A DNA stretch of 64,000 nucleotides from Eledone cirrhosa (lineage: Eukaryota), in NCBI GenBank assembly GCA_964016885.1, contig OZ024741.1, forward strand, positions 348,874,001-348,938,000. Direction: 5' to 3'. Shown here piece after piece: positions 7,880 to 63,723 of the stretch. The translations under genes and the position numbers were made by a program. The first letter of the stretch is position 1, and every line of letters starts with the position of its first letter. The notes beneath the pieces are model-generated. The model was not told the origin of the DNA. It saw only the letters and a program-made list of their open reading frames with translations, and did no database searches.

Positions 7880-7945
7880 TATTTTATTATATATATTTCA
7901 AGGGCGACCGAGGTAAATTATGGTGCGCTTTCATCAGATAAAATA
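7880..7945 (-). ncRNA. Minimal type I hammerhead ribozyme
   Basis: TATTTTAT-CTGATGA-AAGCGCACC..GGTCGCCCTT-GAAA-TATATA-TA/ATAAAATA: 8-bp perfect stem I, intact core, palindromic stem III, AUA site; lies in an element (7765-8018) homologous to 11726-12066. Confidence 0.8.
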
Positions 7946-18480: not shown

Positions 18481-18514
18481 GTGGTCTTTCCCATCTTTTC
18501 CACTCCTTTTCAAC

Positions 18515-22229: not shown

Positions 22230-23329
22230 TTCCTATCCTTCTTTTTGGCATACTCCTTAAACCGATCGATTGAATGCCAATTGCTATTTAGTGTTCATTT
22301 TGAGTTCAAATTCACCTGAGGCCAACTTTTCCTTATTGTTGCATACGTGATCTCAGAATATACAGTATCACAAAGTACTCTAGTCAATATTATCAACAAC
22401 CCCCACCGACCTCCAAAATATGTGTTTCGGGCCGATATAGAAACACAGCATTGTTTTCATATGTTATATTTGGTACAGTACCAAACATTTTTGGAAAGAT
22501 TATACTTGATTAAATTAGCCCCCAGTCCCCATCTGATAACAAAAGTTATCAAATGGGTGGATATGATTGAGTATCAGTAGGTTACTGGGGCTGGTTTAAT
22601 CGACTATGTTTAGTGGTTCTGAGAATCTAACGACAAAGAAGGCTAAAATTATCATTAGATTGCTTCTACTACAATCAAATTCTGCCTCATTCCGGGATAA
22701 AATTGAGTTGGACTCAAGATTTGAGGTCGTTTTAAGAGAAAAGCTCAACATCTAAGGATTATTAAATAGAGTACCACAAAATTAGTTCAAGGGACACAAT
22801 ATAATTTTCCGCTATTTTGTTTTCTTTTTCTCTTTCAGTGGCCATACTCATAAGTGGTATTATAAATATACATGGTCTGCGATCAAAGTTGATGCTGCAA
22901 TATCTGTTCACAGACCTCAAGGCACAACGACAGGTTGTGATATAAATTAGAGAGACGAGGATTTCTGGGATACGCACGCCTGCACTGCTCCTAATCGACT
23001 AGTTTCTTTCGGTGAGCCCGGTTCGAGATAATTAGTAATACTCTTCATGAATCTAGAGATAACAATGGTTTTCCTGAACCAGGGACTTATATTAGCGAGG
23101 GATATAAGTCCCTGGTTCTCAGATTAGTGGAAATGTATGCCTATACAGTCATGCAGTGCGGGACTTCTTTAGATGTCTACATACATACATACATACATAC
23201 ATACATACATACATACATACATACATACATACATACATACATACATACATACATACATGTGACGACAAGTGCAGAGAGATCTCCAGATACAATGCAATGC
23301 CTGCGCCGTGAAGCTTTTATAAGGAGCAT

Positions 23330-23930
23330 ACATGCATACAAGTGCAGACTCTGCAGAATTAACATCGAAGATGTCACCCATGTCATAAGCAGCTGTCCAA
23401 TGATGTCTTGGCGGTACTATCTACTATGAGGCATGATGTATTGGCCAAAACACTGTACAATGCAATCCATAGAAAAGATGACAAACACATTAAAAGCTAC
23501 AGCAATGTGGAAGACATACATATACATAATGTGAAAGAGTACTAGTGGAATGTTCCAATAAAAATCGGAATAAAATGCAGGCATAACAGACCAGATATAA
23601 TGATATGGGTCAAAGAAAAGAAGGCATGCACAGTAGTGGAAGTTAGCTGCCCAGCAGATGCCAATATAATATCAAAGATTAGCGAAAAGGAGAATATTTA
23701 TGCAGAACTAATGAGAAATCTGCTGATACTCCACTCTGACTATACCTTCAGATTTATGCCTGTGATTATTTGGGCACTGGGATATGTTAGTAACCGCCTC
23801 AATACAAATATTGAGAAGCTAGGCTTCACAGAAACAGAAAGAACACAACTAGTTAGGAAATTACAAGTACAATCCGTTAAGGGAACAGTAAAAATATGTA
23901 AAACATTCCAAACATTTTGCATTTAATAAC
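23330..23930 (+). pseudogene. 5'-truncated R4/Dong-type element (CCHC + REL endonuclease)
   Basis: KCRLCRINIEDVTHVISSC, RHD, HNRPDIMIW..VVEVSCP..EKENIY; interrupted by stops. Confidence 0.8.
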
Positions 23931-24246
23931 TGCATATACACATGTACAGATACAAACTGCATATATACATGTACAGACACATGCACACATACAACTCAAA
24001 ATATACACATCCACACATACAATAACATCCATACCTGCACACACATGCATGCATGCATGCATACATATCAACCTAGTTGATGTGCAAATTCCAATGAGAG
24101 AGTATTGTAACTATGTTAGAAACCAGCTCTCTCTCTCTATTGGCAAACATTTGTGAAATTATAAAACCAGAAGAACATACATACATACATACATACATAC
24201 ATACATACATACATACATACATACATACATACATACATACATACAT

Positions 24247-24853
24247 GGTGGCTGCCAACTCGTTTTCGAGTACGGCCACTACTTTATATCCATGTAGGAG
24301 AACTCCTACCGATGCGCTGAACGAGTGTGACTTTTTAGTCCAGCCAGCGACTTGAAAACTCTGATACAAACACTACACTTGTGACAATTATTGACACATT
24401 GTGCTGGGCCCAAGATACCATGTGACGACAAGTGCAGAGAGATCTGAAGATATAAAGCAATGCCTGTGCCGTGAAGCTTTTATAGTGAGCAAAGGCACTG
24501 AACAAAGCCAGTCCCACTCTCTTAACCAAGATGATATTTACCAAAAAGAAGAACAAGTCAACATCATTGAATACCATCAGAGTTGCATGTGTTATATCAG
24601 AGTTTTCCTTCTCCTAGAATTCTGCCTTGACAAAGGCTAAGGGGTCATCTCTCCCGGTGATTGTGGATGGTAATTGACTCTTAATAGCTCCTTTACCCTT
24701 TGACAGGTTTTGTTTTTAGTCCTGCAGGATGTCCAAAGTCACCCTCCTCACCAAGAAACCTTGGTGGGGTTGCCAGTTTAGTCGCCAACGACCCGACCAT
24801 GAAACAGGTTGTACTGGGATACATGTTACCAGTACCACCAACTGGTGACCTGA
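24247..24853 (-). mobile_element. Non-coding RTE-like (bipartite/SINE-like) repeat between (TACA)n tracts
   Basis: Related copies at 26733-27270 and 27388-27760; minus strand has CCCCTTAGCCT..AGGCAG..CTAGGAGAAGGAAAACTCTGA, resembling RTE 5'-UTRs; terminal hairpin GGTGGCTG..CGGCCACT. Confidence 0.55.
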
Positions 24854-24889
24854 CATACATACATACATACATACATACATACATACATA

Positions 24890-26446
24890 CAGAAACAATT
24901 GGACCTCATTACACAATTTTCAACCGACATCAAAATGAAATTTGGTGAGTCCAAGTGTGCATATTTGGCAGTAAAACGTGGAAGAGCTGTGCCCTCCTCT
25001 AGAAATCTAGAGATGAACGGCCTGACAATACAACCTCTGCAGTCAGGGGACAACTACAGATATCTTGGACAGGATGAGAATGTCAGATATGATGGACCCA
25101 TAAATAAGGAGAGAACCAGAACTGAATACCTCAGAAGAGTAAAGAAAATATGGTCATCAGAACTGTCAGCATACAACAAATACATTGCCCACAATACTTA
25201 TGCTGTGCCAATTCTAACACCAACATGTGGCCTACTGAACTGGTCATTGCAAGAACTAAGTGAGATGGATATTAGAACTCGAAAACTTCTCAGTGTTACT
25301 GGGAACTTTAACATCAATGGTGATGTGGATAGTCTATACTTCTCACGCAAGGAAGGTGGCCGGGGTCTAAAATCAATATTAACAACATATGAGACCCGGA
25401 TAGTAACACTGAAGCAACACCTTCAACAGAGGAAAAAGGTTGGCAACCATCTTGCCCAGGTTTATGACCATGAAAAAAGAAATATCATTAGAATAGCGAC
25501 TGATCTGGAGGAGAGATATGGAATAAAGCCTGATAGAAATCTCTCACACAGAGAAATCGGAAGATCCTATTCAATGTTCAAACAAGATAAAAAAATTGAC
25601 CAATTTACAGAAAAAGTTGTGCATGGATACTTGAGGCGTAAAACAGACCATAGAGGGGATAAACCACTCAAAAAGCCTGGCATGGAGTTCCGACAAGTTT
25701 ATGACATCACACCTTGAGGGATACCTCTATGCAATACAGGAACAAGAACTCCCTACCAAATATCTGCTGCACAAAAGAGGAGGGCCAGCAGCTGACAATA
25801 AATGTAGGCTATGTAAAACAAAGATCGAGGATGTAAGCCACATTGTTGCCAGCTGCGAAAGAATGTCATCTCGCTACTACCTCCCCATGAGACACGATGG
25901 GATAGCTAGAACCATCTGGAACGCACTTCGGAAAACAAAATTAACAACAAACGAGGAAGAATATATTGAGACAGATGGCACTAAGGAATACTGGTGGAAC
26001 CTGAAAATAAAAACTGCCACCAAATTAAAGCCTGATATTGTAGTTTGGGACCACACATTGAAAACATGTTCTGTTGTGGAGATCAGCTGCCCACTTGATG
26101 TAAACGTTGTCAGAAAAATACAGGAGAAGGAGGACATCTACGGACCATTGATGAGGAGTTTACAAATCCAGTATTCAAGATACACCTTTAGCTTCATACC
26201 CATCATTATTGGTGCTACGGGTTATATACCAACCCGCTTGGACCAAAGTATGACTGAACTTGGATTTGCGGACAAAAAGCGCAGCTCCCTAATTCATAGT
26301 CTACAAATGGCTGCGATAGCTGGCACCTTCAAAATTTGCAAAACATTCTTGCGATTCAAGGGATGACAATTTCTTTTCTTTTACAACCTTGCCACCAGGA
26401 AGGTGGCCGGTCAAAAAAATATACTCGAAATTAAGAGAAAGAGAAA
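24890..26446 (+). pseudogene. 5'-truncated R4/Dong-type retrotransposon (RT C-terminus + REL) in (TACA)n
   Basis: FSTDIKMKFGESKC, YRYLG, LYFSRKEGGRGL; AIQEQ, CRLC..HIVASC, RHD, KPDIVVWD..EISCP; one frameshift ~25650-25700; last ~200 nt repeated at 26490-26680. Confidence 0.88.
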
Positions 26447-39856: not shown

Positions 39857-40009
39857 CTAGGTGTCAGGAAGACACTCGGCATATATCAGAAACAATACTG
39901 AAGGAAAAGGAAAAAACAATAAAAAATTAATAATAATAATATCGATACCCACAACAACAACATTATCAACAAATGAGTCTCTGCAAATTGTAATATAAGA
40001 CGTAGAATC

Positions 40010-42064
40010 ATGGCACTTTTAAGGTTCCCGTTTGATTTCAACTTTACAGAAGACAACTTTGGCAGTGGCTTGGACAATACGACAGCCTATCCGGCTGGAT
40101 TTGCAGCCTACTCAGAGCAAGTGACCTTTGATTTCTGGCATTTTTCCATTGATAATGAGACATTCAATGACACAGCACAAAATAACAAACTCCCAGTTTA
40201 CCCCGGTGCTGGATTCCCTAGTGGTTACAGCTGGCCAACTATCATCATATCCACTTGTTTTGTTATAATACTCGTTGTTCTTGTCGGACTAGGCAATTTA
40301 CTTGTTTGCATTGCTATTTACACTGATAAAAATTTGAAAATAACCCAGAATTACTTCATAGCTTCTTTAGCCATAGCAGACATGTTGCTTGGCATTCTCG
40401 TAATGCCTTTATCGTGGTGTAACGAGATTTTAGGATATTGGTATTTTGGTCCAATTTTATGTGATTTGTGGTTATCCATAGATGTTCTATTGTGCACAGC
40501 TTCCATTTTAAACCTTGTTCTAATTAGTTTGGACCGTTATTGGTCGATCACAAGAGCTCTCCATTATCCTCAGCAAAGAACTCCCAAAAGAGCTGCTATA
40601 ATGATTGCTATTGTATGGGTTTTGTCAGGTATTATATGTTTGCCACCATTAATCGGCTGGAAACAGCCACGACCAGAAGGAAAAACTCTTTATCCAAAAT
40701 GTTTCTTAAGCGAAGATCTTGGATATGTGCTGTATTCTTCATGCGGTTCATTTTACATTCCAATGGTCATTATGGTTATAGTATATCTTCGAATTTATCT
40801 CGCTGCGTTGAGAAGAGCACGTGGTACTTTGAAAAAGAATCCAAAAGAAGTAAGTCCAGACGCAGTAAAAGACAAAACCACATCCTCTACCGCAACCAGT
40901 TTCACCACACCGCCCAAAAACAACAACCAGAAAGCCATCACCACTAATGCTTCATCACACACTGCAAATAACGCCCTTAAAGATACAAAATCTGCTAATG
41001 CCAACGGTAATTCTAATTGCATAGAAATCAAGCCTGTTGATAAAGAAGCACCTCCTCCAACTGAGAGTATAGTGCCCGTAAAAACAGATGATAAAGTATT
41101 AACGGTGCCGGCACAAGAAAATGGACATAGTGTATCGCTTCAAATTGAAGATGAGCAACGCAATCTCATACACACTGATTCCGATTCTGTTAGTAATTTG
41201 GTTAATAAAACGGCAACAAGTGACAGTGAAGTAGGTGAAATTCGGCCTCCAAATCAGCGTTTAGTACTGGTCACGGATACCGAGTCTTCTTTGGAATCAC
41301 CGAAAAAATCATGTGTTAAAGGAGACCTTTCCACAGAGTTAGAAACTGTGGAGGAAAACGCAAAGCCATTATTAGCTGGTGACACTGATTCAACGACGTA
41401 TTATGATTCCCCTTATTTATCACCGGAAACTCAAATGACTGATACTGGAACATGTACGGAATTAAAGACACCGACTACAACCCGAAAAGAAACTAACCAG
41501 TTTCAGCAACCAAATCAGGTTGAACGTGAGGAAAGTGAAGATCATGGTGAAAACCATGCTGAAGATGAGAATTTAACGCGCAAAAATCCAATTACAGAAG
41601 CTTTGCCTTCTCCAAATATCAAAGAAATTAACGACAAAACACACAAGGACAAAAAGAAAAACAGAAAGAAAAAAGAACATATTTTAATGACAAATTTTAA
41701 AAAGGGACACAAAAACAAAGCAGATATTGAGAAAAACCGCAAGGAACAAACTTGGAAAGCTCCTTCCGCACGCGACGCGGAAAAACAAAAACGACGAATC
41801 GCCAAAGCGCGCGAGCGGAGAGCCACCATTGTACTAGGCATAGTAATGGCGGCATTTATTTTGTGTTGGTGTCCATTTTTCACACTCTACGTTATTTCGG
41901 CATTCTGTGATGGTTGTATACCGATTTTGGTATTTAACATTTTCTTTTGGTTCGGTTATTGCAATTCAGCGTTAAACCCTGTTATATATACTGTGTTCAA
42001 TCGAGACTTTAAGCATGCTTTTATTAAGATTCTTTTCGGGAACAGGAATGTCAAAAGACGCTGA
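40010..42064 (+). CDS. Intronless aminergic GPCR, alpha2-adrenergic-like octopamine (Oct-alpha2R-type) receptor, 684 aa
   Basis: Seven TMs; GN, SLAIAD, TM3 Asp in IDVLLCTASILNL, DRYWSIT, TM5 SSCGSFYIP, CWCPFF, WFGYCNSALNPVIY; N-terminal PSGYS and RERRATIVLG resemble invertebrate alpha2-like receptors; ~340-aa ICL3. Confidence 0.9.
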   Translation: MALLRFPFDFNFTEDNFGSGLDNTTAYPAGFAAYSEQVTFDFWHFSIDNETFNDTAQNNKLPVYPGAGFPSGYSWPTIIISTCFVIILVVLVGLGNLLVCIAIYTDKNLKITQNYFIASLAIADMLLGILVMPLSWCNEILGYWYFGPILCDLWLSIDVLLCTASILNLVLISLDRYWSITRALHYPQQRTPKRAAIMIAIVWVLSGIICLPPLIGWKQPRPEGKTLYPKCFLSEDLGYVLYSSCGSFYIPMVIMVIVYLRIYLAALRRARGTLKKNPKEVSPDAVKDKTTSSTATSFTTPPKNNNQKAITTNASSHTANNALKDTKSANANGNSNCIEIKPVDKEAPPPTESIVPVKTDDKVLTVPAQENGHSVSLQIEDEQRNLIHTDSDSVSNLVNKTATSDSEVGEIRPPNQRLVLVTDTESSLESPKKSCVKGDLSTELETVEENAKPLLAGDTDSTTYYDSPYLSPETQMTDTGTCTELKTPTTTRKETNQFQQPNQVEREESEDHGENHAEDENLTRKNPITEALPSPNIKEINDKTHKDKKKNRKKKEHILMTNFKKGHKNKADIEKNRKEQTWKAPSARDAEKQKRRIAKARERRATIVLGIVMAAFILCWCPFFTLYVISAFCDGCIPILVFNIFFWFGYCNSALNPVIYTVFNRDFKHAFIKILFGNRNVKRR

Positions 42065-44127: not shown

Positions 44128-45325
44128 TCTTCTATTTTGACTTAATATGCTCTGAATATTGTCTATTGAGAAGCACATAATTCAAACATATTTGATATGT
44201 TACATTTGTATGTATATATATATATATAAATTCAGATCTGGGAAAGCAAACTATATAAGAAAAAAATCTTTACTTAATTATTTTAATGTCCTTACTGCAG
44301 TCTAATTGAGAAAATAACGATACTCCGAGTAGACTACTGTGAGAAATCTTAAAACATCAGGAGACTTTCTCAATCAAGAAAGAAAATTCATGACAGAATA
44401 ATTCCTTCCTGCTCGCTATGTATGGAAATTTCAAATTGAAGAACTGTCTTGTGATATGTACTCAACAGGACGGTATTAAGTTGGATATTTGCAGGTTGCA
44501 TGCTACTAGAAAAACCAATCAGATTCGGCCAAATTTTGACGCTACGATAGGGGAGTGTATTACAAATTAAATGAAGACATTTATATATATCTTTACACAA
44601 GTATAGATACATTCAAAGGCGTCCAGCCTATACTAGGCTTTGCTATATGAAAGAATTAATAAAAATCAACCCATTCAGAGCTTAATAAAATAATTGTTTC
44701 TATTTTAGGCACAAGGCCAGCAATTACCCAGAAATTAATAAAATAATCTTTAGGAAAACAAAAAAGATAAGAAAAAAATATTTACTTGCTTACTTTAATG
44801 TCCCCACATCAGTTTCATTGAGAAAATAAAGTTACTCCGAGTAGATTTCTCGCAATACAATCTTCAGATATCGTTAGTTATGATTTTATTAAGCACTGAA
44901 TGGGTCGACTTTTGTTAATCCTTTCATAGAGCAAACTTAGTATCGGTTGGACGCCTTTGTATGTATCTATATTTGTGTAAAGATATATATATTTCTTCAT
45001 TTAATTTATATATAGATATAATATATATAAGTATATATATCATAACTCATGTCTATAGAATTAATCAGATATTAAAATATATACTATTTCTTCTTCTAAT
45101 CAGCATAATTAACCATATACATAATCAAATCTAGCAAGCTTTAAGAATAAATTTTCTCACGGGGAAATCTCCGACAAATAACTGACCGCAGCTAGTTCGC
45201 GTTAACTCCGTTCACCATTTATCAAACATTTCGGCAGCATGCAGAATCCGATCAAATACACCGTCAACCGCACGTAATTAGTAGTAAAATTAAACTTAGA
45301 AGAAATGCGCACATACCGTAATTAT

Positions 45326-45406
45326 ATCTCTACCATGGTTTCTTCCTAGTTTAGGACATCCAAATAATATGGATATGCTTTTTTGAGTCAGGAATCTTCA
45401 GGAGAC
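45326..45406 (-). ncRNA. Type I hammerhead ribozyme (unit 1)
   Basis: GTCTC-CTGAAGA-TTCCT..AGGAA-GAAA-CCATGG-TA/GAGAT; canonical core, GUA site, palindromic stem III. Confidence 0.85.
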
Positions 45407-46016
45407 AAACTCAGAAATAGACATTTAATTTCTCAGACAGACCGCGCCAAATTTAGATTCAAAAATCGCTAAGATCGCTATGTAGCTGTGTACCAGCTAG
45501 AGAGAAAGCGTGTGATTGGTCGCTTACGGCGGGTAGGCATGCTGCTAGAAAGCGCAGCCATATATCGCCAAATTTAATCTCAACCGAAAGGGAGATTATT
45601 AAATATAGAGGTTATAACATACATAAAATTAAATTAAATTAAATCAAGGATACATATATGTGTTGCAACTGTTCACTTTTAAGCTCAATGAAGAATTAAT
45701 AAATTAAAATCAAAAAATCAGAGCATTATATCATAACTCATGTCTATAGAATTAATCAGATATTAAAATATATACTATTTCTTCTTCTAATCAGCATAAT
45801 TAACCATATACATAATCAAATCTAGCAAGCTTTAAGAATAAATTTTCTCACGGGGAAATCTCCGACAAATAACTGACCGCAGCTAGTTCGCGTTAACTCC
45901 GTTCACCATTTATCAAACATTTCGGCAGCATGCAGAATCCGATCAAATACACCGTCAACCGCACGTAATTAGTAGTAAAATTAAACTTAGAAGAAATGCG
46001 CACATACCGTAATTAT

Positions 46017-46097
46017 ATCTCTACCATGGTTTCTTCCTAGTTTAGGACATCCAAATAATATGGATATGCTTTTTTGAGTCAGGAATCTTCAGGAGAC
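46017..46097 (-). ncRNA. Type I hammerhead ribozyme (unit 2)
   Basis: Identical to 45326-45406, exactly 691 nt away. Confidence 0.85.
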
Positions 46098-46224
46098 AAA
46101 CTCAGAAATAGACATTTAATTTCTCAGACAGACCGCGCCAAATTTAGATTCAAAAATCGCACGATCGCTATGTAGCTGTGTACCAACCAGAGAGAAAGCG
46201 TGTGATTGGTCGTTTACGGCGGGT

Positions 46225-46570
46225 AGGCATGTTCTGGTGTAAATCCGTGAAAGGTTTATTTTACTATGATTATTTCAATGACTGGGTTCAGTATGAATCC
46301 GGTGACATCATCAGAATATAACGTAGGAATATATCAGATAAAAATGTTTGGTGTTTAAATCAGAGACTTGAGGGAAGTCGCTAAAATACCGGCCACCCTA
46401 TTGTCTCTTATTTAAACACCAAAGATTTTTATCTGATATATTCCTTCGTTATATTTTGAATTACCTGATGATGTCACCGGATTCATACTGAACCTGGTCA
46501 TTGAAATGATCATAGTAAAATAAACCTTTCAGGGATTTACACCAGACCATGCCTCCTGTTATTTTGTAAT
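46225..46570 (+). mobile_element. Fold-back HHR element (arms ~46225-46367 / 46403-46554)
   Basis: Inverted arms from AGGCATG to CATGCCT; ends in TA/GA repeats. Confidence 0.8.
46461..46518 (+). ncRNA. Minimal type I hammerhead ribozyme
   Basis: TTAC-CTGATGA-TGTCACCGG..CTGGTCATT-GAAA-TGATCA-TA/GTAA; damaged mirror copy at ~46261-46318 (-). Confidence 0.7.
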
Positions 46571-48097: not shown

Positions 48098-50145
48098 TTG
48101 CATTTATCTTGCTTTATGTTTATACGAGTTATCACCAAGTCACAACCAGTGACCTCAAGAGACAACAAGGTCCGCCATGTTCAAGAAAGAACATACATAT
48201 TCACACATGCATCCTTAGTGTTTAGACTTGTGATGCACTTATATTGACAAGATCTTCCTTAGTATATGGGCAGTTCCCATTAGTACTATCTTTTGTATTT
48301 CTCCTATACGCGGGTTTCCTGGGATTTGCGATAAGTAGTCGTTAGACCCCTTAGATATCATTCCCAGAGCGCCTACAATCACTGGTATTGTTTTAGTTCT
48401 CAATTTCCACATTTTTCCAATTTCTATCTCCAGGTCCTTATACTTGCTCAATTTTTCAAATGTTTTTATAGATACATTCTTGTCTATTGGAACAGACATA
48501 TCAATTAGCAGGCATACCCTCCTTTGAAAGTCCTTCAATATTATATCAGGTCTATTTGCATCTATTTTTCGGTCTGTTTGGATGCTAAAGTTCCACAAGA
48601 TTGAGATGTGATCTTTTTCAAGTATGGGAGGTGGTTGATGCTCCCACCAATTCTTTTGATGGGGCAGGTCAAAATGCTTACACATTATCCAATGTATGTA
48701 TTGTGCAGCTCTGTCATGCCTGTTTAGGTATTCGGTTGGAGCTATAGGACTGCACATTGAAATTATATGGTCAATGGTCTCTGGTTGTTTTTTGCATACA
48801 TGGCATAATGGGCTGCATCCATTTTTTATTATGTTGGCTTGGAAAATTTTTGTTGGCAGACACTGATCTTGTGCCGATATAATCAGTCCTTCAGTCTCCG
48901 ATTTCAGTCCAGAGGATGCCAACCACTGATGGGTTAAAGTTTTGTCAACATCAGGATTGTTAGCTCGCTCTGGGTATTTTCCTTACAGAGGCTTTTCTTG
49001 CCATTTCTTAGCCAGTTTCTGTAGCAGTTCTTTCTTTGCAGTTACTTTTACCTGCTTTGCTTTTTCTGTGTTTTCCATTTCAGCAGTAAATGGGACTTCT
49101 GAAATTTGTAGTCCATTACTGTATCTTTGTGCATCTTTTGTAATGGAATATGATCTTTTGGTGCTTTCGTGTTTCAAAACGAGTTTGATCATCCAATCAT
49201 GTGATTCCCTTAGATATGTGGATAATCCAATTGTTGCAGTTTTCAACGCAATGTCTAACTGGATTAACCCACGTCCTCCTTCTTTCCTAGGGAGATATAT
49301 TCTATCTATGTCTGCCTTAGGGTGATGCATTCTGTGCATGGTTAAGAATTTTCGAATTTTTGTATCGAGCCTACGGATCTCTGTGCTTGACCAGTTGATG
49401 ACATTGTAACTGTAGGTTACTACTGGTATGGCAAGCGTGTTTATGGCATCGATCCTATTCCTTGCATTCAATTCCGTTCTTAAGATTGCTCTGACTCTGC
49501 TGTAACATTCCTTCCTTATCCTTTCCCTCATTGTCGAGTGCTTGATTCCGTCTCCTTCACAAACACCTAGATATTTGTAAGTTTTTTCTTGATCAAGCTC
49601 TCTTATCACGTTCCCCCGATCAAGATTAATGTCTGAACTCTTCAGCAGCTTTCCTCTGGTGAACGTTGCTTTGGCGCATTTATCCAGTCCAAACTCCATT
49701 TTAATGTCATCACTGAACTGCTTCACAGTGGATAATAGCCCTTGCAATTGTTCATCATTTTTTGCAAATAGTTTCAGGTCATCCATGTAGAACAGGTGAT
49801 TAATGGTTTTGTCATAGACTCTATATCCATGTTTTGTTTCATTGAGCATTTTACTTAATGGTATAAGTGCGATGCAGAATAAAAGCGGTGATAAAGAGTC
49901 ACCCTGAAAAATTCCACAATTAATGTTAACTTCTCCAGCTTCCAGTGATTTTGTTTCACTATTCAAAAGGAGTGTCGTTCTCCATGTCCTCATACTGAAT
50001 GACAAAAACCTCCTGACAACGGGGGATATTTTGAAAATCTCTAAACATTTTTCAATCCAACTGTGTGGCAAACTATCGAATGCTTTTTTATAATCTATCC
50101 AAGCAATCGATAGATTTTTGTGTCTATTATGACAATCTTCCAGTA

Positions 50146-50148
<3 letters not shown>
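48098..50148 (-). pseudogene. 5'-truncated R4/Dong-type retrotransposon in (TAA)n
   Basis: WIDYKKAFDS, GIFQGDSLSP, FYMDDLK, YKYLG, GGRGL; in-frame TAA at 48983-48985, then SAQDQ, CHVC..HIISMC, NRHD, RPDII..IDMSVP..KLSKY. Confidence 0.92.
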
Positions 50149-50192
<44 letters not shown>

Positions 50193-50199
50193 GTTGTTA

Positions 50200-53100
50200 T
50201 TCCTTGAATCTCAGTCATTGATGTTGGTTAACTGGAAAGTCCGTTGGATTGAATATCAAGCCACTACCTGCAGCCTCAGATATTCAGGACGTATCGGAGG
50301 GTTCTTGCTGTTCCAAGCAAGCATGCCTTTTGAAGCGTTCCAAAAAGCGTGAAGGGGCCGATTTTCTTTAACCATCCCTGGAAACTTTTGGAGATAGTCC
50401 CCAGTGCGCCTATGACAATCGGGATCACTTTGACTTCATGGCAGTTCCAGATCCTTTTCACCTCCCACTTTAGGTCCTGGTATCGGTTAATTTTCTCCCT
50501 CTCCTTCTCTTGCACTCTCGTGTCGAATGGGCAGGCCACATCCACAATCAGACACGATCTTTTTTCTTTGTCCACAACCACCAGGTCAGGTCTATTGTGT
50601 TCCAGTTTTTTGTCCGTCTGTATCCTAAAATCCCACAGCACCTTCACCTGATTGTTCTCCATCACCGCCTCTGGCTTATGCTCATACCATTTCTCAGAAT
50701 GTGGTAAATTGTTTACTTTGCACAGGTGCCAGTGGATCACCCTGCCCATCACATCGTGTCTCCAGCCCTTATAGTGGGTCTGGGCTAGGTGTTTACACTC
50801 GGACACAAGGTGAGCCACAGTCTCCTCTCTCTCTCCACAGATCCTGCACAGTGGGCTAGCCTCCTCCTTGTAGATATGGTGCTTCAACCACTTCGTTTTG
50901 AGGGCCTGCTCCTGCGCAGCCATTAGCATTCCTTCTGTAGCCTTTTTGAGGTCTCCTCTTCACAACCAGTTCCATGTCTGTGGATCTCTAAATTCAGTTT
51001 TCTCAAAGAAGGTACTATGAAGGGATTTTCCCTTAAGGCTGCTCTTCCTCCTTGATGTTATTTCCTCCTTGGACATCCCCTGGCCTACTGTCCCCTCCTT
51101 CAGTACAGTTCTGAGCATTGGCTCCTTACTATAGGTCACGTATTTGTATAGGTTGTTTTTCTCCATCTGAACACAGTCCTCTATGCTGATAAGACCTCTT
51201 CCACCCTCAGATCTCCTTAGGTAGAGTCTATCGACATCACTCCTCTTGTGGAACATGTTGTAGATAGTCAATAGCTTCCTAGTCTTCCTATCCATTTCTT
51301 TTTGTTCAGCAACATTCCATCTCAGAATTCCCGCACTGTACCTAATAATAGACACAGCTCGGGAATTTACTGCGCTTATGGCATTTCTGCTGTTCAGATG
51401 TGACTTCAATACGCTCCTTACTCTCCGAATGTATTCAGTTCTTAACAATTCCTTCATTTTTTTGTTCTTTATGCCATCAGCCTCCAGAACGCCCAAATAC
51501 TTGTATCCTTCCTCAGAGTCAATTTCCTTTATCATCTCACCTGTTGGTATCTGGATCCCGTTACTTCTGCTCAACCTACCCCTCTTCATCACAATGACTC
51601 CACATTTACCAATACCAAACTGCATACATATATCACTGCTGAAAATACGGACAGTGTCAACAAGCACATCCAACTCCTTCTCACTTTTCCCGAAGAGCTT
51701 AAGATCGTCCATGAAGAGGAGGTTATTGATGGTAAGCTCTCCCCTTCCCAACTTGTATCCTGCTCTCACTTTTCGCAGCATAATGGTCAAGGGCATCAGG
51801 GCAAGGACAAACAACAGAGGGGACAGGCTATCTCCCTGGAAGATACCTCTCTTGATCTTCACGCTTCCCAAGGATACTCCAGTTGATGTCAACTCTGTCT
51901 CCCAGGACCCCATACTCCTGCCTAGCAACTGTCTGATGTTATCTGCCACCTTGAAGATCTCCAGGCTTTTGGTGATCCAGGAATGGGGCACCATGTCAAA
52001 TGCCTTTCTGTAGTCTATCCATCCCATGGCAAGATCAGTGTGTCTCCTCCTGCAATTCCCCATTACCATCTTATCAATAAGTAACTGGTCCTTTGTACCA
52101 CGTGACTTCTTTCGGCATCCTTTCTGTTCGTCCGGTAACAAGTTATTTGTGTGGAGGTGATGGTAGATTTCCTCAGACACAATGCTCGTCAACAGTTTCC
52201 ACATTACGGACAGACATGTGATAGGTCTATAGTTGGTAACATCATTACCCTTGATTCGGTCTTTCATTATCAGAACTGTGGTACCTTTTGTCAACCACTC
52301 TGGCACCTCACCCGACACCAAGCAGTCATTGAACATGGCCGTCAGCTTCGGGTGGAGGGATGTTAAATGTTTAATCCAATACCCCTGCACACCATCTGGG
52401 CCTGGTGATTTCCAGTTGGTTAGTTTTTTGGCCTACCCCTTAAGAGTTTCAACTGTGATACTCAACTCAGTTTGTTGTTGTGCCTGCTCACCGATCTCCC
52501 TCTGTACTGTCTCAATCCACCCTGCCTGGGCATTGTGTCTAACATCCTGCTCCCATATTCCTCTCCAGAATGTTTTAGTTTGCTCCGCCCCAGGGATCAA
52601 GTCGTTGCCTCTTTCTTTCCCCTCAAGCTGTCCAAACAGCATCTTCTGGTTGTTGTCGAACATGCGGTTCTGTTTATACTGACTGACTCTGTTCTCGTAT
52701 CGCCTGATTTTTGCACTCTTTGCTACAATGCGTTGCTTCAGTTCCTCTATGATAATATTTAGCTTTTTACTCCTAGTTTTGTATTTTATTTCCAGTCTAT
52801 TTTTAGTGCCTATGTTTTTTAGTGTCCCATTCAGTAGTGACTCAAGCTTTCCTATGTCATTTCTCATTTCCCCGATTTGCCCACTCAGTCGCTTCTTCCA
52901 CCACGGCTCTGCTCTTTCTTGTCTGTTGTTTCCTCTCGCTTTTATACCAAGTAGTTTCCTCACCGTATTTGCTGTTGCTTTGAGGATATTGTTGCACTGG
53001 TGAAGGCTCCTCGCCTCAAGGTATGGGATGACTTTGTTTACCTTAGCTGTTGTTTCTTTTAACTTTTTCCTGTCTACAAATCTTAGGTTCATAGGTCTCC

Positions 53101-53700
53101 CACTATCATTGTTCAATTCATCTACCACTAAATTTAGGATGTCAACCGAATCTTGTCCTAGCCCGTCAGCATTCATCTCCTCAGTGGCCGTATCTCTGTT
53201 CCGGGTATTATTTATCTCAGTATTCAGATCATTGTCTGCTTCGGGTGGTTCCTCCGTTCTCAGGACCTCTTCACCTTCATTTCCCACTGGCTCGCTTGTC
53301 TGGCATACTACACCCGCCATCTCCAAGCCATTCTCTCTGCTCAGTTCCTCCAGTTCCAGCTCGCTTATCCATCCATTAGTTCTTATTACCCGAGCCTGCC
53401 CGGCCAATTTTTGTTCATCTAATTTAAATAAACCAATCTCGTTCCAGATGTTATGCATCCGTCTCCTGTAGCCCCTCTCCTTGGGGTTACTTTTCAGGTA
53501 ACATTGCATAACAGTTCTATTCAATTCTTTCGTCCAGTTGGTTCTGGCCCCTTTCCTTCTTCTCCTTCCTCCAACATCAGCAGTATTTGGTTGACAGTCA
53601 GGTTCCTGCTGCTGAGCCAGGGGGCACCTGTTGGGTGAGAGTCTGTCACATGACGTTCTAGACTCCATTTCACCGTTATTCGAACTGTTTATGTTCGATA
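50200..53700 (-). pseudogene. Full-length single-ORF R4/Dong-type retrotransposon (ORF 53668-50276, two in-frame stops)
   Basis: ORFs 52433-53668, 50960-52390 and 50276-50929 are in one frame, split by TAG (52433-35) and TGA (50960-62); WKSPGPDG, NYRPITCL, FQGDSLSP, FMDD, CCHC, RHD, RPDL..DVACP; 3' end joins (TAA)n. Confidence 0.92.
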
Positions 53701-53799
53701 TTTAAACACTCTTATCGAGGATTGGCGAATGTATGGTTACATATCCATCTGTGGATCCGCCATTCCACTTGGCCCTTGTGTGGCATTATCACCACGCTG

Positions 53800-55438: not shown

Positions 55439-55523
<85 letters not shown>

Positions 55524-55526
<3 letters not shown>

Positions 55527-56070
55527 TTAAACATGTCTATAGAATCACCAGATAAAATATATATCATTTCCTCTCCCAATTAGCATAAATAACCATATAA
55601 AAAATCAATTAGATCAAGCTATAAGAATAAAGGATCCCATGAGGAAATCTCCGACAAATAACCGAAAGCAGCCCCTTCGCGGCGGTTACCACGGAGTATT
55701 TATTGAATATTTCGACAGCATGTATAAATCGACCAGATATACAGTCAACTAAACAGAATTAAGTTGACTGTATATCTGGTCGATTTATACAAGCTGTCGA
55801 AATATTCGATAAATACTCCGTGGTAACCGCCGCGAAGGGGCTGCTTTCGGTTATTTGTCGGAGATTTCTTCATAGGAGCCTTTATTCTTATAGCTTGATC
55901 TAATTGATTTTTTTATATGGTTATTTATGCTAATTGGGAGAGGAAACGGTATATATTTTATCTGGTGATTTTATAGACATGTTTTATGATATATAGCTCT
56001 GATTATTTAATTTGTTAATTCTTCATTGGGCCACAGAGTGACCAGTTGCAAAACACATATATATCTATGA
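55524..56070 (+). mobile_element. Fold-back derivative of the 691-nt unit family (arms ~55524-55750 / 55762-55990 plus tail)
   Basis: Inverted arms; shares CATGTCTATAGAAT, AAATCTCCGACAAATAAC and the tail TTAATTCTTCATTG..GTTGCAA with 45040-45730. Confidence 0.85.
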
Positions 56071-56085
56071 CTTTATATATATATA

Positions 56086-56209
<124 letters not shown>

Positions 56210-57110
56210 GTGCACATCTGTGTATGTGTACATTTGTGTGCGAGTGTATATGCGTGCGTTACAAATGTATAGCTAATTGTATTATTTGCTGCATGGTGTA
56301 TCCGTTGATTATTAAAATTTGATGTTAACAATTACTTATAAAATTTAGAAGAATAAAACTAATAATTGTTTCTACGTTAATAATGAAATGAAAAGTATGA
56401 TGATAATAGTACTGCTAATGCCCAAAATTCTGACGGGGCAGGGGATTTCGAAGTTGGAAATGATGTGGATTTCTCTGATGATGATGAAAAGAAGGGGCTG
56501 GTGGTGATGAAAGATAATAATTGTTTCTACTTTCCGCACAAGGCCAGCAATTATCCCAGTGCATTACTGGTGCTATATTTTGAAGATTGCTGATGATAAC
56601 GGTAAGTGATGATTGTAATGGTGATGATCGTATAATGAATAAGAAGAGGGGAGGAAAAGGTGAAGGCGGAGAAGCAGGCGAAAATAGTGTTCATGTTGGT
56701 GTTGGTGACGATGTTGTTTATTACGATGATGAGATTGGTGCCGTTGATGATTGTCATGATGAGCTTGACAATACAGGTGGCGGTGAGGAAAATGGTTGTT
56801 TCTGTAGTGGTGTTTTCGTGGATGTACTGGCAATTGTTGTTGTTTTTTAGAGTAAGTGTGACTAGATGGTGTCGTCGTAATACTAATGCTAACGAGTTTG
56901 AGTATCTTAAATGAATTTTAGGTAATATAGATAAAAAATATTATAGTAATAAATTTGATAGCCTAACGACAAAACAGACAAAGGCCTTCATAATTTATAA
57001 TACGTCCCCCACTCTCTCTCTCGTTATTTCTCTCGTTCTCTCTCTCTCTTTCTCGTTCTCTCTCTCTCTCTATCTATCTATCTATATATATGTATATATA
57101 TATATATATA

Positions 57111-57222
57111 GGAACAAGTAAGACCCCGACGGCTGAGCTCAAGCTGTTTCGACGGCTAATTCTGGACTGAATGAAAATTTATTCTGGTATTTAAATAGCC
57201 GAGCTTATCAAGGGGTTATTCC
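57111..57222 (-). ncRNA. pLTR hammerhead (U3-A8 variant), copy 1
   Basis: Reverse complement of 62499-62610 with one stem III mismatch. Confidence 0.65.
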
Positions 57223-58409
57223 ATATATGGTCTAAGAGATAATCACCAGGATTGGTCACATCACAAGTTAGTAGTAAATCTGTGATGGCAAATTGGTGGG
57301 GGAGGGGTAGCTAAACCTGCCGGTAGGAGAAAAAGGGGAGAGGGGGTGGAGTAGACCTATTCATGCGTTGGTAGTGCCGGCTACAGCTAGGCGTAAGGTC
57401 AAAGAGGATACTGGGGACAGGGGAGGGGGAAGAAGTCGAAACGGTAAGTAGAACAATGTAGGGTAAAACTATAAAAGGTACTGAGAGAGAGAAAAATAAG
57501 CAAAGTCTGGTTACTAAGACTTAAGTCTCTCGCTATTGCTAGGCTAAAGAAATACATGAATAAATAAATAAACAAATAAGTGAATAAAAGAATAGATAAA
57601 TAAATTTAAAAAATATATATATAATGAAGAATAAAAAAATAAATAATAATAATAAAAATAAACTAGGTGGGACGGAAATAAAGGGACCCTTATACGAGGT
57701 ATAAGTGGGTGTATCGTACGGTGACGGGTCAACAAAGGGGGGGGCCAAAATACTAAAGAGACTACCACGAAATAATAAAGGTTTCTACCCCAATCACAGG
57801 GCCAGCAACCACCCAGTGCAAGAAAGTAAACTAGTACGAGAATATAATTCAGGGTCCCGTAAAAAAATACTAGTGCTAACTCTAAGGGTACCGCCACGAA
57901 ACAAAAAGTTTTATACAAGCTACATGAAAGATCGTACGAAGTAAAAGTAAAGAACGGAAAATTAATACAGAACCCCCCCCCCCCATAAAAAAGGGAAAAA
58001 GAAGAAAGAAATACTGGATAAACGAGAAATTAAAGCAAAGATGCCACTAAGAAATATAGAAGGCACGGAAAAAAGGGACAGCGGTCGGAGAAGGGGGCAA
58101 TATCCGAAGTCTAACACCTCTGCTATAAAAAGCGGAGTCAGCCAAATCTATCATAGAATAGGGGAGGGGTGATGAAGCTACAAGGGACCGAGGGGCTACC
58201 GAGGGTGGGCGAGAAAAAGACGACGACAAAGAAAAGGAACTGGGGTAGAAGGACTAGGGAAGGGTGGGGGGAAGGAGGAAATATAGAGGAAGCGATAAAA
58301 GAATGTAAAAGAAGATCTTACGTTTCCATTGGCAAGCAGGAGTTACCCATTACAAAATAGGCAAGTGGGGTGTTATAGCCGTAGTCATTATGGGGTTTGA
58401 GAGCAGTTA

Positions 58410-60490
58410 AGTCCTACGTAATCGGTGTTTACATGCAGTAACCAGTTCATCTTTCTTGTTTAGGAGTTGGTCCGTCGAAAACAGCATTTGCAAAGTTTCC
58501 TCCGAGCATAAATTGCACGGACGGCGTCCTCCCGTGTAAGAGTTGGCTCTGGACAGTAATTTCCAAGTGAGATCATAGTTGTTGTTGTTGTCCTTGAGGT
58601 CCCATATGTGGCCCGAAAGTGTAGTGGCGTGACGCCGGGCCGGGTTCGGAAGGTATGTCTGTGTTGGTATAGCCGGGTCTTGAAGTCACATGCGGTTAAT
58701 CCTATATAAGCTTTGTTGGAGGTGTCTCTGCATCTGTTGTCGAGGGGGCGACTGGATCTATCAGGACAGTTGCACCTCCTGGTCGGCTCTCCACTGCTAT
58801 TTAGGTTGTTTCTTCCATCGGGGTTGAGTTTTTTGTTGTTGGAGGAGACGATGTTTTGTGCGAAGTTAGGTGTAGTGCTGTAAGAGAGTTTGATGGTATT
58901 TTTGTTAATTATGTTGTGGTAGCGGTGTTGTGGTAGGAAGTGTTTTTCAATGAGCCTAAAGAAAATTTTCCCGATGGGAGTTGTCACCTCGGCGTTGTGG
59001 GGAGGATTGAACCATGTAACATTGCGTGAGCGGCGGTGTCGCCTGCTGGTTTCGCTAATGGGAGCTGGACAGTAGGATATTTCCTCCCGGAAACCACTCC
59101 GCTTGATGGCCTGGTTGTACTAAGGCGCATGTTCATCGAATAAATTCTCATTAGCTGACAAACGGGATATGCGGAGGGAGATGTTTTTGACCAGGTTGTT
59201 GGTGATGTTCCTAGGATGGTTAGATCGGCGGTGGATGTAGTGCAGGTTGTCATTGGGTTTCCTGTATGGGTAGTACAGGTCATTATTGAGATCGAGGGTA
59301 ACGTCCAGGAAATTAACTCGGGTCAGGGACGTTTGTAGGTTTATTTTAAATCCACAGTCGCGGAAGAAGCTGATTAATTGTTTACGGACCCGATCTGTAC
59401 TACTGGGGTTGTACCCTTTAAGGGTAAGGAGCCCATCATCACGGTACAATCCACTACCGAAAGCAGGAAACATATCGGTGAGTTTGGCTATAAGGAATAA
59501 TCCTATAAGATCTGTGACCTCCGCCGAATCCGTAGCGCCCATGCTGACGTCGAAGGGTGAGTCGGGAGCTCTTTTTATCCATTTGGAGTTGTCAAAGAGT
59601 AAGACTGTCTTCCTGGCGTGGAGGATGATTTTTCTTTCCTGGTCGGTGATGGGCACAAGTGCTTCGGCGAAGTCCAAGGCGGCGGTAAGTAGCGGTAAGG
59701 TGATTGAAGCATAGTAGCTCTCTGTGTCGAACTGGATAAATTTAGTGTCTCCTTTATCCTCCATATTGCTGAACCATGAGATAACTTTCTGGGTGTTGAT
59801 ATATAGGCTAAGTCGGGCGTGTTGCTTGACTTTTGGTTTCACGCGGTCTAGGATTTTTTTGCTGATTCTCCCTATGTCGGACTTCGTTGGGTTTATAAGC
59901 CTGATAGATGGTTTACGGTCGAAATCGGATTTGTGGTCCTTCAGTGTGAAGTAGGGTGTCCGTGGGTCTAGGGGTTCGGTGCGGTCGGAGATCCCGAGGC
60001 TGGAGGTAATTTGTTGTCCATCTCGATTAACGTCCTCGATGCATGAGTGGTTAGCCTTTTTATAGGTGGAGTTTAGGTTGCTCCTGATCAGTGTGTGGTA
60101 TCTGTCGGGGTTGACAAAGTATAGGTTCCCAGTTTTATCTGAATGCACCATGATGTCATTGGTGTTATCATACTCTGTTAAGTTGCTACGGAGTTTTTGT
60201 AGGAATCGGTTGTGTCTGGGTTTGAATTTAAGGTTCTTGACCAGTTGGAAGAGGTCATTCTCGAAGGGTGAGAGCAAAGGGTTCGGGGGGGGGTGAGATT
60301 TGTAGCTAATAAATCCGAATCTCTCCTTGGTACCGAAGTCCTGATTGTCGCAAAATCTGTCGTAGAAAAAAGTTCTCCATCTAAGTCTTTTCGCAAATAG
60401 ATCGATTTTTTGCGTGAGCATCCGAAGGTAAAGTTTTTTTGATGGGATTGGGATGTTCTTGGTAGAAAAGTCGATGTTGTGTTTTCACAT
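58410..60490 (-). pseudogene. PLE RT + GIY-YIG ORF (Naiad-type), disrupted
   Basis: ATG-TGA at 60490-60485, FSTKNIPIPS, KRLRWR, DKTGN, TLKDHK, RLINP, FDVSMGATDSAEV, GLYRDDGL, NFLDVTL, SNHP; in-frame TAG 59120-22; RNVTWFNPP, CNC..PL..C, AYIGLT..FKTRLYQH; later frameshift. Confidence 0.92.
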
Positions 60491-60663
60491 GGTGCGAGCG
60501 AAAGAAATTGAGCTTAGCGGAAAAGACTCAATACGGCGTGGTAGGGTCGGAAAGTGCTCTAATACGGGGATAGGAGCTAGATAACGAAGGAAATGTGGTG
60601 AGCAACCAGGTGGACCATAACGCACCAAAGTAGTCAATACTTAGGGTAGTAGAGTGGGTAATA

Positions 60664-60775
60664 GGAACAAGTAAGACCCCGACGGCTGAGCTCAAGCCGT
60701 TTCGACGGCTAATTCTGGACTGAATGAACATTTATTCTGGTATTTAAATAGCCGAGCTTATCAAGGGGTAATTCC
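60664..60775 (-). ncRNA. pLTR hammerhead (U3-A8 variant), copy 2
   Basis: ACCCC-TTGATAA-G..CGGCTA..TAGCCG.C-GAAA-CGGCT-TGAGCTC-AGCCG-TC/GGGGT. Confidence 0.75.
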
Positions 60776-62498
60776 ATATATGGTCAAAGAGATAATCACC
60801 AGGATTGGTCACATCACAAGTTAGTAGTAAATCTGTGATGGCAAATTGGTGGGGGAAGGGTTAGCTAAACCTGCCGGTAGGAGAAAAAGGGGAGAGGGGG
60901 TGGAGTAGACCCATTCATGCGTTGGTAGTGCCGGCTACAGCTGGGCGTGAGGTCAAAGAGGATACTGTGGAGGGGGAGGGGCAAGAAGTCGAAACGGTAA
61001 GTAGAACAATGTAGGGTAAAACTATAAAAGATACTGAGAGAGAAAAAAAATAAGCAAAGTTTGGTTACTAAGACTTAAGTCTCTCGCTATTGCTAGGCTA
61101 AAGAAATACATAAATAAATAAATAAACAAATAAGTGAATAAAAGAATAGATACATAAATTTAAAAAAATATATATAATGAAGAATAAAAAAATAAATAAT
61201 AATAATAAAAATAAACTAGGTGGGACGGAAATAAATGGACCCTTATATGAGGTATAAGTGCGTGTATCGTACGGTGACGGGTCAACAGAGGGGGGGGGGG
61301 CAAAATACTAAAGAGACTACCACGAAATAATAAAGGTTTCTATCCCAATCACAGGGCCAGCAACCACCCAGTGCAAGAAAATAAACTAGTACGAGAATAT
61401 AATTCAGGGTCCAGCAAAAAAATACTAGTGCTAACTCTAAGGTTACCGCCACGAAACAAAAAGTCTTATACAAGCTACATGAAAGATCGTACGTCGTCTT
61501 TTTCTCGCCCACCCGAGGTAGCCCCTCGGTCCCTTGTAGCTTCAGCACCCCCACCCTCTCCCCTATTCTATGATAGATTTGGCTCACTCCGCTTTTTATA
61601 GCAGAGGTGTTAGACTTGGGATATTGCCCCTTCTCCGACCGCTGTGCCTTTTTTCCGTGCCTTCTATATTTCTTAGTGGCATCTTTGCTTTAATTTCTCG
61701 TTTATCCAGTATTTCTTTCTTCTTTTTCCCTTTTTTTGAGGGGGGGGGGTGTTTCTGTATTAATTTTCCGTTCTTTACTTTTACTTCGTACGATCTTTCA
61801 TGTAGCTTGTGTAAGACTTTTTGTTTCGTGGCGGTACCCTTAGAGTTAGCACTAGTATTTTTTTGCGGGACCCTGAATTATATTCTCGTACTAGTTTACT
61901 TTCTTGCACTGGGTGGTTGCTGGCCCTGTGATTGGGGTAGAAACCTTTATTATTTCATGGTAGTCTCTTTAGTATTTTGGCCTCCCCTTTGTTGACCCGT
62001 CACCGTACGATACAAGTACTTATACCTCGTATAAGGGTCCCTGTATTTCCGTCCCACCTAGTTTATTTTTATTATTATTATTTATTTTTTTATTCTTCAT
62101 TATATATTTTTTTTTATTTATTTATCTATTCTTTTATTCACTTATTTGTTTATTTATTTATTCATGTATTTCTTTAGCCTAGCAATAGCGAGAGACTTAA
62201 GTCTTAGTAACCAGACTTTGCTTATTTTTTTCTCTCTCAGTACCTTTTATAGTTTTACCCTACATTGTTCTACTTACCGTTTCGACCTCTTCCCCCTCCC
62301 CCTCCCCAGTATCCTCTTTGACCTCACGCCCAGCTGTAGCCGGCACTACCAACGCATGAATGGGTCTACTCCACCCCCTCTCCACTTTTTCTCCTACCGG
62401 CAGGTTTAGCTACCCTTTCCCACACCAATTTGCCATCACAGATTTACTACTAACTTGTGATGTGACCAATCCTGGTGAGTATCTCTTTGACCATATAT

Positions 62499-62610
62499 GG
62501 AATAACCCCTTGATAAGCTCGGCTATTTAAATACCAGAATAAATTTTCATTAAGTCCAGAATTAGCCGTCGAAACGGCTTGAGCTCAGCCGTCGGGGTCT
62601 TACTTGTTCC
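62499..62610 (+). ncRNA. pLTR hammerhead (U3-A8 variant), copy 3
   Basis: GGAATA-ACCCC-TTGATAA(62510-16)..GAAA(62571-74)-CGGCT-TGAGCTC-AGCCG-TC(62593)/GGGGT-CTTACT-TGTTCC. Confidence 0.75.
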
Positions 62611-62689
62611 TATTACCCACTCTACTACCCTAAGTATTGAGTACTTTGGTGCGTTGTGGTCCACCTGGTTCTTCACCACATTTCCTTCG

Positions 62690-62743
<54 letters not shown>

Positions 62744-62842: not shown

Positions 62843-62988
62843 TTGAATTAGTATGGTATAGACAAGTACATATGTTGTTTAGGTGTATGATATTGTCAAT
62901 ACTCTGATATGCCCAGTTCCTTGCTGGGTTGTTAATTCACTGGGGAACTGGAGTCATATGTTGGTATACAACCAACATAAACTCAAAA

Positions 62989-63020
<32 letters not shown>

Positions 63021-63023
<3 letters not shown>

Positions 63024-63635
63024 TAAAACATGTCTATAGAATCACCAGATAAAATATATACCATTTCCTCTCCCAATTAGTATAATTAACCATATAAAAA
63101 ATCGAATACACCAGGCTATAAGAATAAGGCTTCTATGAAGAAATCTCCAACAAATAACCGAAACTAGCCCTTCGCGTCGGCTGCGACGGAATATTTATCG
63201 AATATTTCGACAGCGTAATCGCCCAGATATACAGTCAATTAAACAGAATTAGGTGTAAAATAAACTAGGAGAAAAGAGAATACATTTATTTAATATAGAT
63301 GTATTCTCTTTTCTCCTAGTTTATTTTACACCTATCTATTTAATTGACTGTATATCTGGGCGATTACGCTGTCGAAATATTCGATAAATATTCCGTCGCA
63401 GCCGACGCGAAGGGCTAGTTTCGGTTATTTGTTGGAGATTTCTTCATAGAAGCCTTATACTTATAGCCTGGTCTATTCGATTTTTTATATGGTTGATCAT
63501 GCTAATTGGAAGAGGAAATGGTATATATTTTATCTGGTGATTCTATAGACATGTTTTATGATATATAGCTCTGATTATTTAATTTATTAACTTTTCATTG
63601 AGCCACAAAGTGACCCGTTGCAAAACACGCATATG
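63021..63635 (+). mobile_element. Fold-back derivative of the 691-nt unit family (centre ~63290, plus tail)
   Basis: Inverted arms 63021-63285 / 63299-63562; closely related to 55524-56070. Confidence 0.85.
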
Positions 63636-63723
63636 TATATATGTATATATATATATATTTATATATATATGTAGACCTTTATATGTATATATATATATAT
63701 GTATGTATATAATTGTGACAGAC

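Follow-up and report, generated by a model that had tools for sequence, protein, structure and literature searches.

The window, by which we mean the whole 64,000-nt stretch of Eledone cirrhosa DNA that was analysed, contains an insertion at positions 45036-46231 of the minus strand. It consists of one arm in which a full unit (positions 1-691) is followed by unit positions 1-505, with unit position p of the first copy corresponding to window position 46232-p. The first copy (45541-46231, minus strand) is 691 nt long and ORF-free, and since the second (45036-45540, minus strand) holds only positions 1-505, the insertion amounts to 1.73 units. The preliminary description of head-to-tail, near-identical units was accurate for the similarity of the copies, which are 99.0% alike over 506 columns, and not for the length of the second, and its span of 45040-46231 has been extended to 45036. 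All five differences fall in the first 71 nt, the 5'-most part of the insertion (46161-46231); these variants are absent from the second copy and almost private to this insertion. The second copy ends in a TA-rich target at unit 505, the commonest 3' end of the family, which we infer to be a start site of reverse transcriptase (RT), here called site A. The window copy is a single 505-arm.

Two older hairpin repeats, at 46225-46554 and 44558-45014, flank the insertion. The former is a separate repeat and not part of the unit; it adjoins the 5' end of the insertion, where seven bases (46225-46231) are shared, and its family has 1257 candidates and a decayed hammerhead-like core. We considered whether it could belong to the element, or represent the 3' UTR of a partner, and rejected both ideas, as all other matches end at these 7 nt.

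Several other features were recorded in the window. An intronless rhodopsin-family GPCR gene (39977-42064, plus strand; Pfam 7tm_1, E 5e-68), presumably for a biogenic-amine receptor, lies about 3 kb from the insertion. LINE-type frames were found at 16885-21934 (plus strand), 23016-26366 and 48239-53701 (minus strand), with an endonuclease-RT frame of 1152 codons at 18476-21934. Three more type I hammerheads with a palindromic stem III (TATATA or TATGTA) are located at 7937 (minus), 11964 (plus) and 62837 (minus) in other repeat families. Two hairpin insertions of a sister family that is 70-79% alike (55443-56106 and 62987-63687) have a 505-type end in (TA)n. The segment 9300-9893 (minus strand) is a 3' fragment of a young and very abundant Neptune-like family of Penelope-like elements (PLEs) with 31,686 candidates. 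Finally, positions 57091-62700 hold a Hydra-clade-like PLE with a long pseudo-LTR (pLTR), an inverted arm and an ORF at 60484-58460 that is broken by a stop; its RWR, DKT and CxC motifs are those given in the available text of Craig et al. (PMC8557442).

Hammerhead motifs and predicted folds of the unit

A scan of both strands of the window located minus-strand motifs at 46092 and 45401, which confirmed two identical hammerheads exactly one unit apart. Hammerhead 1 (46016-46098, minus strand) is of type I, with the core CUGAAGA at 46092-46086 and a predicted cut between 46022 and 46021, after unit 210. Hammerhead 2 (45325-45407, minus strand) has its predicted cut between 45331 and 45330. As the preliminary description stated, the motif positions place the cuts exactly 691 nt apart, and the predicted cut-to-cut monomer (45331-46021, minus strand) is 691 nt long. 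Both motifs read TTTGTCTC, CTGAAGA, a 52-nt stem II, GAAA, CCATGG and TA/GAGATATA, with a stem I of 6 bp, an outer stem II of TTCCT..AGGAA that encloses an inner hairpin, and the palindrome CCAUGG as stem III. Because this palindrome is minimal, the ribozyme likely needs a dimer; the self-duplex was calculated at -13.2 kcal/mol, and stem III is predicted to form better between two copies.

The hammerhead fold is not the minimum-energy fold of its 93-nt region (-12.3 kcal/mol constrained vs -15.1 kcal/mol free, a difference of 2.8 kcal/mol), the folding z score of this region was -0.44, and a search of Rfam gave no match at the gathering score for the hammerhead. An exact 28-mer that spans the cut and stem III occurs 818 times in the genome, its reversed control 0 times, so the motif is far beyond chance. 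In about 125 copies the core bases were almost invariant, with N7 and the cut base varying as allowed, a pattern in line with a putative ribozyme function; the core was only modestly more conserved than the whole unit (0.028 vs 0.041). The outer stem II showed two-sided changes across sister families (TTCCT/AGGAA, ATCC/GGAT, GTCTG/CGGAC and GTTCG/CGAAC), and these compensatory changes suggest that selection may act on the ribozyme. Of 98 distinct sequences, only 73 form the first pair of stem II.

When the monomer was treated as a circle, its longest ATG ORF was 27 codons and its longest stop-free run 61, in agreement with the description of the unit as ORF-less. The cut-to-cut monomer folded with a z score of -4.1 against 20 shuffles, mainly through a predicted long rod at unit 212-474 (45758-46020, minus strand), which begins 1 nt past the cut and pairs with the 3' strand of stem I. 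The rod was also predicted in two sister families (z -3.4 and -3.6, compared to -6.4 in the main family). A possible retained GT-AG intron (unit 225-488; 45744-46007, minus strand) is indicated by motifs only and precedes an ATG. No spliced copy of it was seen among 132 regions; its donor is kept in relatives and its acceptor is missing in some of them, and the ATG, which opens no frame, is unconserved and replaced by ACG in many copies. At 46134-46209 (minus strand), CCAAT (46209-46205) and TTTGGCGCG (46142-46134) are promoter-like motifs of putative function.

Family copies, insertion ends and coding relatives

The host genome is 3.0 Gb, and the unit used as query gave 2133 first-look candidates, of which 40 were scored. 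We read 132 merged regions, corresponding to 130 distinct insertions after two duplicates had been dropped, and about 180 insertions in all out of well over 800. The copy-number search that had been proposed returned a dispersed family with at least 818 motif copies, and the view of a young, dispersed, non-coding retrozyme family is supported, with a dimeric hammerhead that is plausible. Contigs from three runs of unrecorded kind, all of one sample, contained variants of the family at high depth.

Single arms ending at unit 505 accounted for 61 of the 130 insertions, while 60 loci had arms on both strands. In 47 of these 60, the 505 end was paired with an end at unit 594-636 (mostly 625 or 635), and 505 was never paired with 505 (0/60). 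The second 3' end (unit 625-635; 45597-45607 on the minus strand of the window) is inferred to represent a further RT start site (site B). Almost all 3' ends (164/173) adjoined (TA)n or (TC)n. The 5' ends were variable, with anchored arms of 72 to 2396 nt and up to 3.5 turns, and 5' truncation, partial tandems and inverted, back-to-back arms were common. Two fixed 3' ends in combination with truncation, inverted arms and (TA)n targets are the signature of a PLE. The coding Neptune-like PLE of the same genome likewise has two 3' ends, at ATG+26 and ATG+106, in (TA)n. The 120-130 nt between sites A and B correspond to the PLE "tail" as defined in the available text of PMC11167929.

A local DNA duplication or satellite with a chance hammerhead-like motif would also yield tandem units, and local expansion does occur in the superfamily, in the form of an array of about 45 units with higher-order repeats. 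We give this explanation next to no credence, since the copies are dispersed, with fixed 3' ends, 5' truncation, inversions and (TA)n targets, and since the window copy itself ends at the 505 site of the family. The array (L280-L283; G000:C1:92,985,500-93,016,000) has units of 657-667 nt, belongs to a relative that is 78% alike, and is bounded by both arm ends and (TA)n in spite of its higher-order repeats; it is a retrotransposed seed that expanded locally into a satellite.

The preliminary description would have been contradicted if the unit were the pLTR of a coding PLE, with the copies as its truncated 3' ends. This was not so in any copy examined. A PLE reading frame that continued a unit arm as its own 5' part was found in 0 of 132 regions, and every arm that could be read past unit 1 ran into unit 691, never into an ORF. 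No long frame continued an arm among the first 30 of the 818 motif matches, which were 73-96% alike and all on the same closed cyclic unit. The 5' flanks of 78 single arms had no upstream sequence in common beyond other repeats, with six pairs similar near the junction, one of them a duplicated region. PLE protein fragments were present in 30 of the 132 regions as neighbours in shared (TA)n tracts, one ambiguous chimera excepted. Six long coding Neptune-like copies had no pLTR similarity to the unit, and a self-search of the window detected no similarity between the unit and the Hydra-like copy. Given these results and an ATG that is not conserved, we regard a pLTR of a coding element as very improbable, even though only about 180 insertions were read and the unit resembles the coding Neptune-like family in having a hammerhead, a possible intron, an ATG and two TA-flanked ends.

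The Neptune-like family, with open frames of about 1240 codons in copies elsewhere in the genome, was recognised by its CX4CxxC linker and C-terminal GIY-YIG. With the PLE ORFs as queries, Pfam gave one sub-threshold GIY-YIG match only and a PDB search gave nothing, and the Neptune-like ORF grouped with RT/GIY-YIG clusters of the Atlas at 0.96-0.98.

As no arm is joined to an ORF of its own, the element is non-autonomous in all copies seen, and none of them has an RT plus GIY-YIG ORF between pLTRs, the feature of autonomous PLEs. It does have the features of non-LTR retrozymes, namely a type I hammerhead in two tandem units, no coding capacity, no LTR and many dispersed copies. The preliminary description set a retrozyme against the pLTR of a PLE; the best reading combines the two, as a non-autonomous PLE whose insertion ends are of PLE type. 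The element is likely a PLE-mobilised non-LTR retrozyme, and we assign the element itself to this class with high confidence. As such, it is one more family of a class that is already known.

Five-prime ends at the predicted cut and the RNA template

For statistics on the 5' ends, arms were sampled by short anchors (unit 432-505 and 226-300) and treated as a survival curve. The sample consisted of the 156 anchor rows that remained once the rows of three duplicated regions and one partial match had been removed, and one arm of the sister family, which extended as far as the boundary of its locus, was treated as censored. A first sample of 40 loci over-represented long copies and had no pile-up at the cut; it was therefore not taken as a source of anchors for these statistics.

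In the main family, 18 of 119 5' ends were located in unit 211-230, the 20 nt after the predicted cut, as compared to 4.0 expected (P 2.7e-7), and none of 5000 random scans was as extreme. The 20 nt before the cut had 6 ends vs 3.9 expected. A sister family that is 77% alike, with a unit of 657 nt, showed the same tendency: of its 35 ends, 7 lay within 20 nt past the cut, where 1.1 were expected (P 1.6e-4), and 0 in the 20 nt before; one anchored arm began on the first base after the cut. Some of these ends join (TA)n through a microhomology of ATATA at +4, which was used in 5 of the 18 ends of the main family and in 3 or 4 of the 7 ends of the sister family.

The simplest reading of the excess is that RT ran off the 5' end of cut RNA, and we judge it quite probable from these genomic ends that the hammerhead cleaves in vivo. 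In a rival explanation, the element is a non-autonomous PLE and its sole templates are uncut tandem RNAs, linear and initiated near unit 615-660; the hammerhead would be a passenger and no circle would be involved. The ends at 211-230 would then result from the structure of the RNA together with TA microhomology, or else from cut RNAs that form a minority; a structural stall could place ends at the cut because both stem I and the base of the predicted rod lie at this point. Such a rival has to account for an excess that persists without the TA-joined ends (11 of 81 vs 2.8 expected) and is not seen where TAATTACG recurs 44 nt downstream (unit 255-274; 3 ends vs 4.6 expected), for the sharp 5' limit in the sister family, and for the compensatory changes in stem II. 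It draws on a second pile-up at unit 614-640, in a range chosen after the fact, which is as dense (11 vs 2.8 expected) and lies at a fixed unit position in both types of arm. This pile-up could represent the transcription start of a linear RNA. Equally, it lies at the point where one turn of a 635-arm is complete and where, on a circle, a 505-arm would run into the second start site. Partner arms that began at unit 495-514 numbered 4 of 28 (1.0 expected, P 0.02).

Most passes cross the cut (81 in the main family and 20 in the sister family), so that the main template should be either uncut tandem RNA or a re-ligated circle. The available text on the anole PLE called PAc also speaks for the copying of uncut RNA, as this is its main substrate in vitro, the ribozyme is dispensable, with ribozyme mutants inserting normally, and no RNA reads start at the cut (PMC11167929). 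The array of about 45 units in a relative could serve as a source of tandem transcripts. On the other side, a divergence of 27% has left the unit closed, while copying from linear RNA with 5' truncation would be expected to make the sources shorter; this mildly favours a circle. Taken together, we consider copying from uncut RNA alone unlikely, although it is the strongest of the alternatives, and we lean slightly towards a circular RNA as template on the basis of the genomic copies. Junction reads were rejected as a test for the circle, since they have the same letters as uncut genomic tandem RNA.

In nearly every insertion, the turns and the two arms had one haplotype when inspected by eye, with 1.3% mismatch. 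This points to one source per event and fits a tandem source and a circle alike. A nearest-neighbour test of origin from one molecule was not discriminating, as only 17 of 60 tandem pairs and 20 of 73 inverted ones had a lower mismatch within the locus than to the closest other locus. The haplotypes also bear on the possibility that RNA is cut to linear monomers and that RT, having reached the 5' end of a monomer, jumps to the 3' end of the following one, which would produce tandems without a circle. The pile-up of 5' ends at the cut would be expected from such jumps, as would the few insertions that mix haplotypes, with arms differing at several diagnostic sites (L052, L054 and L129), and the fold-back and switch junctions at cut-site ends (L217, L221 and L290). 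However, in spite of several subfamilies, successive turns have the same haplotype on either side of the cut in practically every multi-turn arm shown, and positions 209-213 are nearly invariant in read-through arms, meaning that the junctions at the cut are seamless. We therefore find jumping between monomers improbable.

Proposed cycle and known systems

The reading that we favour, with moderate confidence, is that the ORF-free 691-nt repeat, present at hundreds of (TA)n sites, is a non-autonomous Penelope-like retrozyme with a self-cutting RNA, which is likely copied by a borrowed Penelope-type enzyme. Tandem copies would be transcribed on the minus strand, and two hammerheads are predicted to pair by their CCAUGG palindromes and to cut after unit 210, releasing the 691-nt monomer. 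A host ligase would then, in our slightly preferred version, close part of the monomers, with the rod that starts at the cut holding the ribozyme shut. A PLE RT-endonuclease would nick both strands of (TA)n, and copying would start at the observed ends, unit 505 and unit 625-635, one per strand. On cut linear RNA, the enzyme would run off the 5' end and leave arms beginning at 211-230, and on a circle it would read through and produce tandem turns as in the window. The 5' end would finally be joined by microhomology, as observed here for the 7 nt shared with the older repeat.

A more specific version, which we put forward tentatively, is that a dimer of the PLE enzyme copies both the cut linear monomer and the re-ligated circle from the two fixed start sites, with the rod locking the circle. 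Arms going round the circle would stop where the other start site is occupied, and reverse transcription would unlock the ribozyme by stripping the 3' strand of the rod. If true, this version would provide genomic evidence for cutting by a PLE hammerhead in vivo and for RNA circles as templates of retrotransposition in animals. A young family with hundreds of readable insertions and with 5' ends that mark the cut would turn the role of PLE hammerheads and that of the circle as template into a countable genomic test, and the unit is a defined RNA with two mapped start sites that could be used in an in vitro assay.

Metazoan non-LTR retrozymes have units of 170-400 nt and RNA circles that have been demonstrated, with PLEs proposed as mobiliser and the circle-as-template step of the cycle given as a hypothesis in the available text of Cervera and de la Pena (2020, PMC7229834). 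Our element resembles them in being built of AT-rich, non-coding units in tandem, each with a single type I hammerhead, in ranging from dimers to long arrays, and in having a short helix III that likely needs a dimer, as in axolotl retrozymes. It differs in its 691-nt unit and 52-nt stem II, in its mapped insertion ends of PLE type, and in a predicted rod that sequesters stem I, most animal circles being predicted to leave the ribozyme free; its own RNA circles are putative. The plant LTR retrozymes, characterised by a type III hammerhead in LTRs, PBS/PPT and a 4-bp TSD according to the available part of a recent preprint (Li, Clavereau, Pollet 2026, 10.64898/2026.07.22.740005), are unlike the element, which has a type I motif, no LTR and (TA)n flanks.

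The same preprint, as far as its available part shows, argues that animal retrozymes are non-autonomous PLEs of 51-972 bp. With a mean of 650 bp in fish, the 691-nt unit is unexceptional, and the earlier label "large" was dropped. The element has the two consecutive units with complete type I hammerheads that are its working definition and, as there, co-occurs with coding PLEs. In Xenopus the retrozymes are similar in sequence to pLTRs, whereas the link here is the anatomy of the insertions, no similar pLTR having been found in the Neptune-like and Hydra-like copies compared. Eight of nine predicted dimers failed to cleave in that study, the available part of which includes neither an analysis of end positions nor a mollusc.

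The function of the hammerhead in PLEs was called unclear by Craig et al. (2021, PMC8557442). Judging from the available text of that paper, the element shares with Neptune, Hydra and non-autonomous Chlamys elements such as MRC1 the 5' truncation, partial tandems and inverted 5'-truncated arm, as well as a tail on one end only, (TA)n targeting, a hammerhead and a possible retained 5' intron. It differs by having no ORF, a tail of 120-130 nt instead of 30-40 bp, and a unit that is closed on itself. For PAc (Poseidon, green anole; Frangieh et al. 2024, PMC11167929), the available text describes in vitro work in which two internal RT start sites delimit the tail and both target strands are nicked and extended. 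The two internal starts, the extension of both strands, the AT-rich targets and the position of the hammerhead upstream of the start sites are all as in our element. PAc is coding and our unit is ORF-free; RNA reads of PAc never began at the cut, whereas the genomic copies here tend to do so. What is new in this study is the excess of truncations at the cut of a PLE hammerhead, which was seen in two families. The literature searched contained no paper on the family or on truncation points at such a cut, and the family may be present in Repbase/Dfam.

At two loci the element adjoins other PLE sequences. At L279:3485-8230, a full Neptune-like coding arm that terminates at its tail end is followed by 138 nt of inverted Neptune sequence, then by a fold-back of 12 nt and by a unit arm covering positions 217-505. 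This complementary pairing is possibly the result of one co-insertion event, which would name the partner, or of an insertion with deletion. At L285, 17 nt of a Hydra-like end occupy the corresponding place, and this joining could be due to a later insertion with deletion.
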